Below, in pieces: positions 1 to 8,126 of a stretch of 64,000 nt of DNA. The translations under genes were made by a program, and so were the position numbers. Source of the DNA: Promethearchaeota archaeon. GTDB lineage: Archaea > Asgardarchaeota > Lokiarchaeia > Sigyniarchaeales > SOKP01. The notes below the pieces were generated by a model that ran no database searches, had not been told where the DNA came from, and saw only the letters and a program-made list of their open reading frames with translations. Numbering within the stretch: position 1 is the first letter of the stretch; each line of letters opens with the position of its first letter. The stretch is taken from contig JAHPZE010000012.1 in assembly GCA_019058365.1 (NCBI GenBank), positions 13,451-77,450 on the forward strand, in the 5' to 3' direction.

Positions 1-331
1 TTCTATGCAAACGATACAACAGGTAATCTTAATTATCAAGAAGTAGTGGTTAGAAAAGATATTATAGCTCCTGGTATTATCATCAACTCCCCAAATTCTA
101 ATGATTTATTTGGAAAAACTGCTCCGAATTATAATCTTACAATCATAGATAATAATTTAGATTCGATCTGGTATTCACTTGATGGAGGGAGCACGAATTC
201 AACTCCAATTGCAGCAACAGGAACTATTAATCAAATTATGTGGAGTGTACAACCTAATGGTACTATTACCATTCGATTCTATGCAAACGATACAACAGGT
301 AATCTTAATTATCAAGAAGTAGTGGTTAGAA
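1..331 (+). repeat. Intragenic direct repeat: 55 identical nt at 1-55 and 277-331 (276-nt/92-aa period)
   Basis: ttctatgcaaacgatacaacaggtaatcttaattatcaagaagtagtggttagaa occurs at both positions. Confidence 0.95.
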
Positions 332-2643
332 TAGATATAATTGCTCCTATTATTACAATTATAGAACCAAATAATTTTGATAAGTTTGGGATTACTCCTC
401 CAGATATTACTATAAATATTAATGATACTAATTTGGATAAAAGATGGTATCAATTGGATAATGGAACAGTTATTACTAATAATTACACATGGACAGGACT
501 TATCGCTCAGAGTGTATGGGATCAAATCGGCAATGGAACAGTAATAATTCGATTTTACGCAAATGACACGTTAGGTAATTTAAGAACCGCGGAAGTTATA
601 GTTTATAAAGATATATACTTCCCTTGTATAATAATCAATTCTCCCAATATTAATGATGTTTTTGATAGTACGGCACCTGGTTTTATTGTTAGTGTGAGTG
701 GAAGTGATCTGCATACAAGATGGTATTCTTTAGATGACGGATTATCAAATTATACATTTACAGGGTTAACTGGGACTATAAATCAATTGGCATGGGATGC
801 CTTAGGGGATGGTACCGTAACGGTTAAATTTTATATAAATAATACCTTAGGAGTTATAGGATTTAATGAGATAACAATCATAAAAGACACTTTAGCACCT
901 TTAATTACAATAAACCTTCCATCGAATAGTACCTATTTTGGAACAACCCCAATTATCAATATATTAGCAACTGATGCAAATCTTGATGCGATTTGGTATA
1001 AAGTGAATACAATTAATATCTTATTAGGAAATAACATAAATCAGCAACTTGATGCTTCAATTTGGAATAGTTTACCAGAAGGAGTCTTTTATGTCTACAT
1101 TTATGCAAATGATAGTGTTAGTCACTTGAGTGACCCTGTTATACTAATCTTATATAAAGACACAATTGCTCCCTCAGCGCCGATATTAATAAGTTTTCCT
1201 CAAGGAGAAGTAAGTGGTACTTTAATATTCGAATGGCAAGAAGGTATTGATCCTTCTGGGATATCAAAATATAGATTGATTATAGATAATGAAGCAGATC
1301 CTTTTGCTACATCAGGATTCATATTTGAAATTAACATAACAGGCAATTATTATGAATATACGGGCTCCCTTCAACCAGGAACTTATCATTTCTTTTTATA
1401 TCAGATTGATGGAACAGGTCATCAGAGTCCTGCTTCAAATGGTAGTTTTTCTATAAGATCGAGTTTTCAACCTTCGCAATTTCCTTTTTGGATTATCATT
1501 GTTATAATCGGAGCAGCTATAGGTGGGGTGGTTGGAATTATAGTCTATAAGAAATCAAAAAGTAAGTCAGTAAAACCTATTGAAATTCCAGAAAAAGCAA
1601 TTATACCTAAATTTAAGCCAAAAATAGTAGAAGAATTAAAACTATTGGAATATGAAGCACTTAAAAATAAAAGTCACAGCGAATTAAAAGCTAGAGAAGA
1701 AAAAATACTGGTTTACATTAAGTATTTAGAAGAAAACAATGATTATATTAAAGCATCAGAATTTATAGGAGAACTGATCATAATTGAAGAGATTCTTGCT
1801 AATCCTATTAAAGCAAAATCATATCATCAAAAACAAATAGATACTGCGGTTAGGGGCCTTGATTATTTAAAAGACCAATACGAAATGGAGTCAAAAAATG
1901 CTGCTATTTCAGGAGATTATTCAAAATCATTAGAATTATATAAAGAGAGCAAATTAATATCTGAGAATCTTAAATTGTATCTTGAACAACAAAAATCTTC
2001 TTTACCTGAAGAAGATGTTGTACTAAAAACAAAAGGACCAGCAATATTAGTGGAAGATACAGAAATCGTGTATTCTTGTATTAACGACTTATTAACAAAA
2101 TACTTTAACGAGATTGGAATTAAATATTACTACAATCCTCATTTATATGGTGATATTTCCAAAAAGATTCATGGGTTAATTCTTGCTACTGATATTATAT
2201 TATTTGAAGACCTTGATCCCTCAATTCGGGATAAAATAAAAGCCATTCAAATTATTTTCTCTGAGGATATATCCAATCAAAATATTCAGAGAATTTGCGA
2301 AGATTTTCAAAGCTCATCGATGATTTTAATGATTATTGGTATTAAATGGCCTAAAGATAGTGAAACTCAAACAATTGAAGTCCCTCAAAATAAAAAAATA
2401 AAATATCCAGAAAATATTAAAATTGTTCACTATGAGCTCTTTTCTAAATTAATAGGATTAAAAGGTGATTATGAGGTTGCCCTTAGGGAGATTTTTAATT
2501 TATATGATAAATCAGAACTAGACCTCTTACATGACTCACATAATTTTAGTACTGCAAAGATGCATGATACTGAAGAATTACTTCAAGATCTTAAAGAAAA
2601 AGGCTTGAATGAGAAAAAATTAGAAGAATATTTTAACAAGTAA
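1..2643 (+). CDS. Large single-pass membrane/surface protein (5' truncated): tandem ~92-aa Ig-like repeats, one TM helix, ~365-aa cytoplasmic tail
   Basis: Frame is open from base 1 (FYANDTTG). Repeated WYSLD...GT.TIRFYANDT.GN motifs and many N-x-S/T sequons. TM FWIIIVIIGAAIGGVVGIIVY (~1480-1548) is followed by KKSKSK. Confidence 0.85.
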   Translation, partial: FYANDTTGNLNYQEVVVRKDIIAPGIIINSPNSNDLFGKTAPNYNLTIIDNNLDSIWYSLDGGSTNSTPIAATGTINQIMWSVQPNGTITIRFYANDTTGNLNYQEVVVRIDIIAPIITIIEPNNFDKFGITPPDITININDTNLDKRWYQLDNGTVITNNYTWTGLIAQSVWDQIGNGTVIIRFYANDTLGNLRTAEVIVYKDIYFPCIIINSPNINDVFDSTAPGFIVSVSGSDLHTRWYSLDDGLSNYTFTGLTGTINQLAWDALGDGTVTVKFYINNTLGVIGFNEITIIKDTLAPLITINLPSNSTYFGTTPIINILATDANLDAIWYKVNTINILLGNNINQQLDASIWNSLPEGVFYVYIYANDSVSHLSDPVILILYKDTIAPSAPILISFPQGEVSGTLIFEWQEGIDPSGISKYRLIIDNEADPFATSGFIFEINITGNYYEYTGSLQPGTYHFFLYQIDGTGHQSPASNGSFSIRSSFQPSQFPFWIIIVIIGAAIGGVVGIIVYKKSKSKSVKPIEIPEKAIIPKFKPKIVEELKLLEYEALKNKSHSELKAREEKILVYIKYLEENNDYIKASEFIGELIIIEEILANPIKAKSYHQKQIDTAVRGLDYLKDQYEMESKNAAISGDYSKSLELYKESKLISENLKLYLEQQKSSLPEEDVVLKTKGPAILVEDTEIVYSCINDLLTKYFNEIGIKYYYNPHLYGDISKKIHGLILATDIILFEDLDPSIRDKIKAIQIIFSEDISNQNIQRICEDFQSSSMILMIIGIKWPKDSETQTIEVPQNKKIKYPENIKIVHYELFSKLIGLKGDYEVALREIFNLYDKSELDLLHDSHNFSTAKMHDTEELLQDLKEKGLNEKKLEEYFNK

Positions 2644-2707
2644 GAACAGTTAAAAAATAGAGATAAGTGTATTTAATTATTAATTAATATTTTTTTTTCC
2701 TTTATTT

Positions 2708-4255
2708 TTAAAGATTCTTAATAGTACTAAACATAACATTTAATTGTTCATATAATTCTAATCGGAATTCAGAACTAAGATTAAATATAAAATAAGAAAT
2801 TTGTCTTTCTTCCAATTTTGTATATAAATCAAACTCCCCAATCATTTTTGACCAATTTACTTTTTCCTTAGTTATTATACCAATTAAGATCACTGCATTA
2901 TCTTTAAGAGTTTCAATTAGTTTTAAAATAATGTCATTCCAATGAAGATCAATAGAATCCTTTTTTTTAGCATCAAAAATAACAAAAACTCCATCAGAAT
3001 CAGAAACTTTCATAGAAATAAAGTTATAGCTTTCCAAGATTAATCCATTTGAAAATTTATAGATCTCTCTATCTTTCTTATCCTTTTTAGAAAATGGCCC
3101 TAAATCTTTTATCTCTTTTAAAAGCATTAAACCAGGATTGTTGACATGATCTTCTGATATAAATGCTATTGAAAGATCATTTTTGCTTTCGAGGATTGAA
3201 TTAATTTCCCTTAAAATCACACTTTTTAGGTTATTTTCTTCAGACTCTTTACTTAACATGATAAAATGATAAGCTACAATCCCAAAAGCTTCTTCAATAT
3301 TTTCTCCCGTTAACGCACTTGTTTCAATATATGAAATCTTTTTTTTATATTTTTCAGATAACATTTCTACTAATGTTACAGCTTCCTCGGATTCAATTTC
3401 TCTTTCTTGCTCCAGATCTTGTTTATTTCCAACAATAACCACTGATATCTCATGTTCTCTAAATTCATTCAATTCATTAAACCAATTTATTAAATTATAA
3501 TAGGAATCTTTATTTGTTAAATCAAAAACAATAAATGCAGCTTGAGCCCCTTTATAGTATACTTTTCGATATCTTTTAAAATATTGCTGAGCTCCTATAT
3601 CCCAGACAAATAAACTAATTTCATTTCCAAAAAATTCAAAATTATGAGATAATACATTCAATCCTATAGTAGTACGATAATCTGCTAAGAATCTCCCTTC
3701 TACAAACCTGCGTAAGATTGAAGTTTTACCAACTTCATGGTCTCCTATAATAATAAATTTAAATCTATACGTCCCTCCAGACTCTAGTCCAATTTGATAA
3801 GATGGACTGTCTCTTCCATAATACCCTTCAGTTTTATACTCAAAGTTAGGAATCGATAATTCAATTAAATCACCTTCTGATGCAAGTAGAATTTGAGCCA
3901 CTTTCTCCGCAAGAAAATAGGCGTATGGCGCTATTTTATCAATAGAGCCTAGATTTTCAATAACTAAACTTAACGTTATATTTTCAGTAATAGATATAAA
4001 TAAAATACGATTGTGTTCTGTATCAAAGTTTGCTGTTCCAAATTTTTTAAATGAAAATTCATTACGAAATCTCTCTATAACAGGATTAACAACAGCAGTC
4101 ATAATTGAGACTAATTCCATATCTACATCCTTTCTGCGTTCTCCTGAAATAATTAATCCGTCTTGATCAGAAACTATAATGGCTTCGGCATCCTTATTTA
4201 TCTCTAAGAAGTTCTTAAATAATTCACTGAATAATATATTTTTATTTATTGACAA
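2708..4255 (-). CDS. Roadblock/LAMTOR-like domain + Rab-like small GTPase + C-terminal degenerate GTPase-like domain
   Basis: N-terminal AIIVSDQDGLII roadblock pattern. G1 GDHEVGKTS, G2 YRTTIG, G3 WDIGAQ, G4 NKQD, G5 ETSAL. The C-terminal alpha/beta domain (SDGVFVIFD, VILIGI) has no P-loop. Confidence 0.9.
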   Translation of the reverse strand: MSINKNILFSELFKNFLEINKDAEAIIVSDQDGLIISGERRKDVDMELVSIMTAVVNPVIERFRNEFSFKKFGTANFDTEHNRILFISITENITLSLVIENLGSIDKIAPYAYFLAEKVAQILLASEGDLIELSIPNFEYKTEGYYGRDSPSYQIGLESGGTYRFKFIIIGDHEVGKTSILRRFVEGRFLADYRTTIGLNVLSHNFEFFGNEISLFVWDIGAQQYFKRYRKVYYKGAQAAFIVFDLTNKDSYYNLINWFNELNEFREHEISVVIVGNKQDLEQEREIESEEAVTLVEMLSEKYKKKISYIETSALTGENIEEAFGIVAYHFIMLSKESEENNLKSVILREINSILESKNDLSIAFISEDHVNNPGLMLLKEIKDLGPFSKKDKKDREIYKFSNGLILESYNFISMKVSDSDGVFVIFDAKKKDSIDLHWNDIILKLIETLKDNAVILIGIITKEKVNWSKMIGEFDLYTKLEERQISYFIFNLSSEFRLELYEQLNVMFSTIKNL

Positions 4256-4579
4256 CGTGGATGCCTCATAAGAAAAGGATTAATAATAACAAAAAAGTTA
4301 ATTTACGATTTAATTTGTTATTTGATATTAATATAATCTTATAATTATATAAATTTGATTAAGGTTTTGATTCAGAGGATTTAGAATATAGAAAGCTTTC
4401 GGACTTATCATTCAGCTTATTAATCTCAACCGCATGAGTATTCATAAGATTTGAAATTTTTTTGTGCGGGGATGTGATTCATATAAAAATGCGATTGAAA
4501 TATTGAGGAATATGCCATAAATTTATTTATCTCTAAGAAGTTCTTAAATAATTCACTGAATAATATATTTTTATTTATT
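4194..4579. repeat. Perfect 57-bp direct repeat (4194-4250 and 4523-4579)
   Basis: ttatttatctctaagaagttcttaaataattcactgaataatatatttttatttatt occurs twice, 329 bp apart. The first copy lies in the 5' coding end of the GTPase gene and the second is intergenic. Confidence 0.95.
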
Positions 4580-5843: not shown

Positions 5844-6269
5844 TCAAGATTGAGAGAAATATTTAATCGTTAATTTTTTTTTACCTTGTTCAAGCCACAT
5901 TTCCAAGGCATCTTCTGGAATTTTATTAAATAAGATGATCCCATCTTGGAGTATACTGTGTAGGAAGGGATTACCTTCCATTAGCCCTTTTTTAAACTCT
6001 TCATAACTAATATTTTTTGGTTGTACTAAACCCTCACTATATTTATAAGAGATTAAAAAACGCTCTCTTAAATCGTTAAATTCTTGGTCGTAAACACATA
6101 GTACATCAATATCACTATATTGTGTATATGTTCCCTTAGCTAATGAACCGTATAACAAAATTAATTTTAGGGTTTCCTTATCAATACGATTGATAAAAGT
6201 TTTTAATTCATCTAGATGAGGATATCTCTTTAATTTTTTCTCTAACAAATCTATTGATAAATTTTGCAT
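5844..6269 (-). CDS. Minimal nucleotidyltransferase (MNT), putative antitoxin
   Basis: LYGSLAKG...SDIDV Pol-beta superfamily motif. Start is uncertain (ATG 6269 vs track 6323). Overlaps the HEPN gene. Confidence 0.88.
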   Translation of the reverse strand: MQNLSIDLLEKKLKRYPHLDELKTFINRIDKETLKLILLYGSLAKGTYTQYSDIDVLCVYDQEFNDLRERFLISYKYSEGLVQPKNISYEEFKKGLMEGNPFLHSILQDGIILFNKIPEDALEMWLEQGKKKLTIKYFSQS

Positions 6270-6639
6270 ATTCAATACACTCTTTTGCTGTTTTTTGGTT
6301 GTAATATTCTGCGGGATAACCACTTGCGAATCCGTTTGGATAACGGGGTTGTATATAATGGCGATCTAATTCTTGGCTTTTCTCAATTAATTCGTTAAAT
6401 TCTTGTTCATCTAATTCCATTTTTTCTTCTTTTACAAGGCGTTTCCATTCTTTCAATAAATGAATTAGTCCATGTCCCCAAGAATCAATATTTAGAAATA
6501 ATAGCAATGCTTTTAAAGCTTTCTCAGCTGATTGATGTGCTTGAAAGCATGCCCACTCAAAATGTTTGTATTTTTCACTGTCGGATGCTGCTTCCATGTC
6601 TTTTTCGGCTTGTTTAAGCCAATCATTAAATCTATTCAT
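6208..6639 (-). CDS. HEPN domain protein, partner of the MNT
   Basis: WLKQAEKD...WACFQAHQSAEKALKALL...GHGL...LDRHYIQPRYP, the classic archaeal HEPN signature. Confidence 0.92.
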   Translation of the reverse strand: MNRFNDWLKQAEKDMEAASDSEKYKHFEWACFQAHQSAEKALKALLLFLNIDSWGHGLIHLLKEWKRLVKEEKMELDEQEFNELIEKSQELDRHYIQPRYPNGFASGYPAEYYNQKTAKECIEYAKFINRFVREKIKEISSSR

Positions 6640-7010: not shown

Positions 7011-8126
7011 ATGGTCAGTTATGAATCAAGACCTATTGTAATGGATAATGGAACAGCTCTATCCAAGATTGGCTTTGCTGGGGAGGATGAACCAAACATA
7101 ATAGTCCCAACATTCCCTACCAATCCAATTATAGCAAAACCAAGTATTATCCGTCCCCTCAAGGATATGAGTGAAATTAGACCAAGATCTTTAGTGCAAA
7201 AAAATTTTTCTCAAGGTAAATCTCCTTTAGAAAGAGGGATCATAACAGATTGGGATGCAATGGAGAGATTTTGGCAAATCGTTTTTTATAATCTGCTTAA
7301 AATTGACCCAACAACACACCCTTTAATTTTATCGGAAATACCATTAAACCCAACGGAAAATAAGCTTAAAATGGCACAAATTATGTTTGAAAAATTTAAA
7401 GTCCCTTCACTTCTTATTATTTTGCAACAATCTTTATCATTATATGCATCTGGTCGTACAACGGGCTGTGTTGTGGATATTGGGGAGGGAGTAACAAAAA
7501 TCGTGCCAATTTCTGAAGGCTATGTTCTCACACACGCAATTCAGCTAATGGATATTGCTGGACAAGATATTACAAGATATTTATTAAGATTATTGAGAGA
7601 AGCGGGATATCCATTAACATCAGCAACAGAGAAAAGTCAAGCTATAGATATTAAAGAAACATTTTGTTATGTTTCTTCTGATTTCAATAAGGAGACAGAG
7701 TTAATGAAGAACTCCCCAACCATGGAAAAGATATACAAAACTCCTGATGGAGAAGAAATAAAGATCAAAGGTGAACGATTTATTGCACCTGAATGTTTGT
7801 TTAAACCTGTTCTAATTGGAAAGGAAATTAACTCTCTACCTGAAAATATCATAGAAGCAATATCTTTATGTGATATGAATCTTCACAAAGATTTTTATAA
7901 TAATATAATTCTTTCTGGTGGGACTTCAAGTTTTCCTGGTATAAAAGAACGGCTGAAACATGAAATTATTAAAAGAATTCCCACATCAATAGGAGTTAAC
8001 ATAATTGCATCTCCAAAGAGAGAATTATCTACTTGGATTGGTGGATCACTTTTAGGATCTCTTCCGAGTTTCTCTGAAATAGCAATAACTAAACAACAAT
8101 ATAAAGAATCAGGTTACGAATATTAA
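7011..8126 (+). CDS. Actin-family protein (divergent Asgard actin-related protein)
   Basis: VMDNGT..SKIGFAGED, GIITDWDAME, SLYASGRTTG.VVDIGEG, DIAGQDIT, ERFIAPE.LFKP, ILSGG, TWIGGSLLGSL. Confidence 0.95.
   Translation: MVSYESRPIVMDNGTALSKIGFAGEDEPNIIVPTFPTNPIIAKPSIIRPLKDMSEIRPRSLVQKNFSQGKSPLERGIITDWDAMERFWQIVFYNLLKIDPTTHPLILSEIPLNPTENKLKMAQIMFEKFKVPSLLIILQQSLSLYASGRTTGCVVDIGEGVTKIVPISEGYVLTHAIQLMDIAGQDITRYLLRLLREAGYPLTSATEKSQAIDIKETFCYVSSDFNKETELMKNSPTMEKIYKTPDGEEIKIKGERFIAPECLFKPVLIGKEINSLPENIIEAISLCDMNLHKDFYNNIILSGGTSSFPGIKERLKHEIIKRIPTSIGVNIIASPKRELSTWIGGSLLGSLPSFSEIAITKQQYKESGYEY

Follow-up and report, generated by a model that had tools for sequence, protein, structure and literature searches.

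Small GTPases that work with Roadblock domains are known from MglA-MglB of Myxococcus and Thermus and from Rag-Ragulator, and in Asgard archaea the two have already been described in a single chain, Roadblock first and small GTPase behind it, with 26 of the 74 GTPases of MK-D1 carrying roadblock or longin domains (Tran et al. 2024, PMC10933270). Also described are a soluble operon of Roadblock, Rab and DENN genes, whose conserved neighbourhood names candidate Rab regulators (Liu et al., bioRxiv 10.1101/2020.10.19.343400), and an unordered, complex surface-protein coat imaged on Ca. Lokiarchaeum ossiferum (PMC9834061). Rab-like GTPases that lack a lipid anchor number in the dozens in Asgard genomes, which also encode many giant surface proteins. 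The locus considered here lies at the start of a 64,000-nucleotide stretch (the window) from a Promethearchaeota archaeon of the Lokiarchaeia (GCA_019058365.1, contig JAHPZE010000012.1, positions 13,451 to 77,450), in which the gene of a giant single-pass surface protein, hereafter the receptor, meets tail-to-tail the gene of a Roadblock-Rab-like GTPase-pseudoGTPase fusion. As it singles out one soluble tail and one GTPase, the pair bears on how Asgard GTPases reach membranes and on whether surface proteins signal inwards; it is a concrete, if putative, candidate for a route by which signals enter the cell from outside in the archaea most closely related to eukaryotes. No paper was found on Asgard DUF2341 transmembrane proteins, on this receptor family, on its dead nuclease or on the pairing, in a literature search that covered subscription papers thinly.

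Each of the described systems resembles one part of this locus. Compared with the Asgard fusions, for which no transmembrane partner is reported (PMC10933270), the window GTPase has a third, degenerate G domain and an alanine in place of the G3 glycine, and is a paralogue tied to a surface protein. Unlike the GTPases of MglA-MglB and Rag-Ragulator, it is Rab-like, fused behind its roadblock, and accompanied by a candidate membrane receptor as partner; MglB itself appears weakly in a PDB search with the Roadblock domain (E 0.55). The Roadblock-Rab-DENN operon is co-directional, Asgard-wide and soluble, whereas the present pair is convergent, restricted to a family, and includes an ectodomain. 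As to the receptor, its head and stalk modules are those of the DUF2341/LamG/immunoglobulin-like (Ig) adhesin-like giants, from which it differs by a folded tail of 363 aa; such giants are possible counterparts of the densities imaged on Lokiarchaeum.

The central observation is that, in each of two receptor clades, the receptor gene is accompanied by a Roadblock-Rab-pseudoGTPase paralogue particular to that clade. In a survey of 135 genomes of one family, all 15 type-A GTPases (the type found in the window, with orthologues 58-100% identical in the last domain, followed by a gap down to 50%) face a clade-A receptor, and one metagenome contig adds another. Type-B GTPases also number 15; the 13 with a visible neighbour all face a clade-B receptor, and the remaining two sit at contig ends. 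There are thus 29 convergent pairs against one exception. They come from two genera and in two paralogous versions, A and B, with ~30-36% identity between the tails and ~50% between the GTPases. The A and B GTPases each form solid clades, and tandem receptors precede one GTPase in two genomes. The surroundings change from locus to locus: beyond the GTPase gene, 28 loci show 21 families, and beyond the receptor gene, 10 loci show 9. What is paired is a set of dedicated GTPase paralogues, not any of the ~90 Ras-like genes: this genome has 92 of them, three being of the three-domain type, of which two form a tandem core pair that is found genus-wide and is located elsewhere, and the third is the window gene. 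The preliminary description, made from the sequence of the window, had noted the 64-bp convergent spacing, which is confirmed, and had suggested synteny across Lokiarchaeia as a check, from which the pair emerges well. Since it comes in two paralogous versions, the link can be put to the test with purified proteins, each version providing a specificity control for the other (tail A with GTPase A and tail B with GTPase B, compared with the core copies).

The window holds the 3' third of a ~2,750-aa receptor (Table 1). Its start lies at C29:7825 of this genome (G000), 5.6 kb ahead of the window, and is followed by 1,842 codons and a gap of 100 N. The reading frame is unreadable across this gap; a single gene is likely because the homologues are continuous proteins of 1,778-2,373 aa with an identical order of modules. 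The N-terminal part comprises a hydrophobic leader, four DUF2341 domains, three LamG domains and Ig-like repeats. In the window, complete 92-aa repeats begin at nt 55, 331, 607 and 883, and a different, juxtamembrane unit, which has no Pfam match, begins at nt 1156. Single window repeats match Ig-like families weakly (Big_13, E 0.03); sister repeats upstream in the same gene, ~80% identical in DNA to those of the window, reach E 7e-7, and a PF19077 match on homologues also supports an Ig-like stalk, so that the Ig-repeat ectodomain of the preliminary description holds by way of these relatives. Its single transmembrane helix is likewise borne out by sequence and hydropathy; the helix contains two GxxxG motifs and is followed by a lysine-rich stop-transfer segment. 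Altogether, the anatomy is one of lectin-type heads, Ig stalk, one membrane-spanning helix and a folded tail.

Table 1. Features of the receptor-GTPase locus and the nearby actin gene (window coordinates unless a contig is given)
Feature	Position	Strand	Remarks
3' part of giant single-pass surface protein (clade A receptor)	1..2643	+	open frame, 880 aa in window
Full receptor gene	G000:C29:7825-16093	+	100-N scaffold gap just before window position 1
Stalk of 92-aa Ig-like repeats, one partial and four complete	1..1155	+	
Juxtamembrane beta unit and short linker	1156..1485	+	FN3-like by eye only
Single transmembrane helix, aa 496-517	1486..1551	+	sequence, hydropathy scan
TPR-like helical hairpins	1675..1995	+	AlphaFold2 (AF2) helices at tail residues 41-147
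Catalytically dead PD-(D/E)xK (restriction-endonuclease-fold) domain	2044..2640	+	model, fold searches, motif counts, trees
Convergent spacer, T and A runs	2644..2707	.	64 bp; 17-67 bp in relatives
Roadblock - Rab-like GTPase - pseudoGTPase, type-A paralogue, 515 aa	2708..4255	-	
Degenerate G-domain-like region	2711..3190	-	without P-loop, DxxG, NKxD
Rab-like G domain	3260..3772	-	Ras domain PF00071, E 6e-42
Roadblock/LC7 domain	3881..4255	-	Robl_LC7, PDB match
Actin homologue, outside the module	7011..8126	+	E 7e-102

The tail had been put at ~365 aa and called unusually large; the size is right, the qualification is not. Most DUF2341/LamG/Ig paralogues of this genome stop 5-30 aa past the membrane helix; in several single-pass giants the tail measures 126-471 aa, in three cases with TIR domains, and large signalling-type tails are a theme of this genome. 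The TIR-tailed giants (tails L178, L182 and L183, at C7:139840-143649, C33:54916-61557 and C54:45694-50250; E 1e-13 or better) present a Toll-like topology in an archaeon, with a cytoplasmic TIR domain on a single-pass giant. Four further giants of the same genome (C7:2883-6920, C12:16721-23524, C16:113829-118703 and C16:161268-165317) appear by eye to have longin-like tails, for which Pfam gives no support.

What, then, is the receptor tail? Searches of the tail in Pfam, PDB sequences, PADLOC and Atlas features returned nothing usable. The AF2 model shows helical hairpins followed by an alpha/beta domain. The hairpin region has TPR/solenoid structural matches with Z of about 8, which are generic, and a weak TPR_2 match in 8 of 26 proteins; in the alignment, the second hairpin alone is kept in clade B receptors. 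As a VIA search with the whole tail was swamped by generic helical matches, the end domain was folded alone (predicted local distance difference test score 92, from 92 sequences), which gave an alpha-beta-beta-beta-alpha-beta core, as in the PD-(D/E)xK superfamily. Of its 50 best matches in VIA, all but a few are PD-(D/E)xK proteins, at modest Z values (4.2-6.1) that leave the assignment to rest on the unanimity of the matches and on the motifs of relatives; the top match is AF1548 (Z 6.1, root-mean-square deviation 4.0, 128 aligned), and both Foldseek, which places MspJI first (E 3e-3), and the Atlas fold search agree with this fold.

A profile search yielded 162 relatives of the end domain, both membrane proteins and soluble proteins, some of the latter with helix-turn-helix (HTH) repeats. 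The soluble homologues (E down to 1e-41) retain the motif H..E..D..D/E-x-T, with H and E each in 49 of 52, D in 52 of 52 and the motif III D/E in 52 of 52, whereas receptors keep H in 0 of 40, E in 3, D in 7 and the motif III residue in none; the window protein has lost its catalytic acids by the changes H>Y691, E>N712, D>H724 and D/E>I752. Receptor domains form one clade with support of 97-98, motif columns in or out (quick trees, midpoint root), two acids are still present in the earliest receptor branches, and the tail is under purifying selection, the ratio of nonsynonymous to synonymous substitution rates (dN/dS) being about 0.14-0.30. The single clade, the lost motifs and this selection mean that a nuclease joined a surface protein in one fusion event and was retained there without its enzymatic role. 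The net charge, per 100 aa, is -7.7 in clade A, -6.0 in clade B, -2.4 in unpaired receptors and 0.0 in soluble proteins, and the acidity of the GTPase-paired clades argues against DNA binding there. The end domain descends from soluble endonucleases by one membrane fusion and a stepwise loss of catalysis, after which it became acidic. Independently of any link to the GTPase, it is a clean case of an enzyme turned pseudo-enzyme, all stages of which are extant: soluble relatives that are active, early-branching receptors in which the site is half decayed, and receptors in which it is wholly dead. The ancestral nuclease may have been selfish or of the homing type, as the HTH repeats and the patchy spread suggest.

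The family of this domain occurs in 44 of 91 genomes searched within one archaeal family and in 1 of 209 elsewhere. The labels Hodarchaeota, Thorarchaeota and Hermodarchaeota on some homologues were rejected as evidence of a wider spread, since P0002, P0004 and P0006 match the G010, G130 and G002 loci, with protein lengths equal to those at these loci, all within the family. Among the soluble members, L011, L012, L013 and about 50 proteins of the P series are large, with an intact PD-(D/E)xK-like site and, in some, HTH; this family, possibly a selfish nuclease, reaches up to 8 domain matches per genome, and one member carries an RNase T-like exonuclease. Clade C receptors (L074, L075, L076) combine the same dead tail with a subtilase (S8)-type ectodomain (Pfam on P0045, by eye on L020), and a conserved gene of ~260 aa often follows them. 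Erased active sites on a PD-(D/E)xK fold are also known from the inactive restriction endonuclease (REase) domains of the BrxHII helicase and of NACHT-associated NA-iREase1 (PF22722), and these domains of bacterial conflict systems, like the tail, adjoin or are fused with a nucleoside triphosphatase (NTPase). Unlike them, the tail domain is acidic, sits at the cytoplasmic terminus of a single-pass surface giant, matches nothing in Pfam or PADLOC, and has as its candidate NTPase partner a separate GTPase of the Ras family.

The domain order given for the GTPase by the preliminary description, Roadblock, Rab and pseudoGTPase, stands, the third domain with moderate support. Robl_LC7 is found in 19 of 23 members of the GTPase family, and the PDB match of the Roadblock domain is 7yh1 (E 4e-4). 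All of G1 to G5 are present in the Rab-like domain (GDHEVGKTS, Thr, WDIGAQ, NKQD and ETSA); in G3 the glutamine is kept, and the DIGAQ variant is common to most family members. The third domain, which matches Rho6 at E 0.007 and scores 68% and E 5e-5 in hhalign (control domain 8%), appears from these sequence profiles to be a G domain stripped of its motifs. The C-terminal prenylation cysteines of eukaryotic Rabs are missing, as the GTPase has no C-terminal cysteine and its chain runs on into the third domain. An exact 57-nt duplicate of its first codons (window 4194-4250 and 4523-4579, 329 nt apart) stems either from a recent rearrangement or from a slip in the assembly. In another genome, an 895-aa protein (L073:7597-10284, G002:C32) combines Roadblock, GTPase and pseudoGTPase with a coiled coil and TPR-like repeats.

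Receptor and GTPase genes belong to a 15.0-kb segment (G000:C29:4082-19111, up to window 5661) that is missing at the same site in G005, a near-identical genome (mostly 92-98% DNA identity). The segment encodes a beta-helix surface protein, a 296-aa protein, the receptor, the GTPase, a winged-HTH protein and a membrane protein, and no mobility gene was recognised in it.

Does the pairing reflect function, or adjacency alone? We lean towards the former, namely that the two genes are a functional unit made of a surface receptor and a dedicated GTP switch, which is consistent with purifying selection on the tail, the intact G motifs and the location of the core tandem GTPases elsewhere. It is somewhat unlikely, in our judgement, that a GTPase copy simply landed tail-to-tail with a surface-protein gene and that the block, held by its tiny spacer and shared terminators, was duplicated, moved and lost as a unit, with the receptor signalling or anchoring through other partners. 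Several facts nonetheless speak for this and weigh against a functional unit. Short convergent pairs taken as controls are often shared with relatives, the three compared having 8/11, 5/10 and 6/21 of them (29-73%). At 17-67 bp, the spacer offers little room for a rearrangement, several-fold less than the upstream spacers of ~170-950 bp; convergent genes are not co-transcribed; and, as the pair lies inside an indel segment, joint gain or loss is expected from adjacency alone. One clade-A receptor, in genome G010 (83% complete), has no adjoining GTPase, nor did a search of that genome turn one up; there are clade C and basal receptors without a pair, and 11 other dead-nuclease receptors are without a GTPase next door, so that the dead tail can exist without that neighbour. 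The sisterhood of A and B GTPases has support of only 57/20, and a single duplication of the pair is accordingly neither shown nor rejected. Controls are few, and kin genomes are not independent.

Set against these facts, the controls are kept almost only within syntenic blocks (12 of 15 with both flanks, 5 of 17 with one and 0 of 8 with neither), whereas the receptor-GTPase pair survives with neither flank kept, in two versions and two genera, and its genetic linkage exceeds this background, small as the set of controls is. The link is retained in both paralogous versions, and no orphan type-A or type-B GTPase was seen in the 135 genomes, though both genes are under purifying selection. Beside the ~20 soluble members with a visible neighbour, no such GTPase occurs. 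A promoter and terminator scan of the locus used bacterial models and is uninformative here. A predicted complex of tail and GTPase scored 0.00 against a mark of 0.32, with controls not folded, and is counted neither way.

If the two genes do form a unit, the LamG heads might bind glycans or partner cells, and the GxxxG helix might dimerise or cluster. The TPR hairpins and the acidic dead nuclease would then form a protein-docking platform for the GTPase. Docking would bring a GTPase without lipid anchor to that membrane patch and affect its nucleotide cycle, perhaps through a pairing of Roadblock domains in the style of MglB, which acts as a dimer; local membrane or contact-site remodelling would be the likeliest guess for an output. 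That a lectin receptor with a domesticated endonuclease tail recruits and switches its dedicated Roadblock-Rab-pseudoGTPase upon ligand binding is a tentative proposal, which we rate below an even chance. If true, receptor-to-Ras-family signalling would have been invented independently in Asgard archaea. The suggestion of a eukaryote-like receptor coupled to GTPase or cytoskeletal signalling therefore stands in part: synteny favours the GTPase, the cytoskeletal side finds no backing, and "eukaryote-like" needs qualifying, as the dead restriction-endonuclease-fold tail is almost confined to one family and no eukaryotic receptor counterpart of it was found. The system is lineage-specific and not a eukaryotic ancestor; since only part of one family has it, it tells of the evolutionary capacity of Asgard cells and not of what eukaryotes inherited. 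The locus is best described as a real candidate module: its two genes are well linked genetically, one of them encodes an unusual pseudo-enzyme tail, and the coupling of their products is putative.

A membrane-anchored defence or danger sensor, whose heads would bind a virus or foreign cell, whose dead nuclease would bind either a nucleotide signal or nucleic acid entering the cell, and whose downstream switch would be the GTPase, is improbable in our view. Inactive REases beside NTPases have been proposed as nucleotide sensors in bacterial immunity (bioRxiv 10.1101/2025.10.09.681413), sister giants of this genome carry TIR tails, and the patchy distribution and island location would suit such a role. 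Against it stand the strong acidity that the end domain acquired in the paired clades and the slow evolution of the GTPase (~76-86% identity), which is unlike that of typical conflict proteins. Moreover, among the conserved neighbours, which were partly annotated, none was recognised as an effector, a nuclease or another defence gene. The receptor shows no STAND ATPase or helicase fusion and no PADLOC match.

Coupling of the receptor to the neighbouring actin is very improbable, and actin was rejected as a module member on genomic grounds, since the gene, although indeed present ~3 kb away as described (2.8 kb from the pair), lies outside the 15-kb island, is beside the pair in no relative's locus, is kept by G005 without the pair, and is one of six actin-like genes in the genome. 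This actin is ~50% identical to the next two of the six, and its neighbours differ even in G005. A FAM92/BAR-like protein (L001:500-1147, PF06730 E 6e-10), encoded upstream of the window, was considered as a third member and rejected: it lies within ~15 kb in five type-A genomes and on other contigs in five others, and is present in many genomes without the pair. Between the GTPase and actin genes, window 5844-6639 encodes an MNT (nucleotidyltransferase) and HEPN pair of the toxin-antitoxin type.

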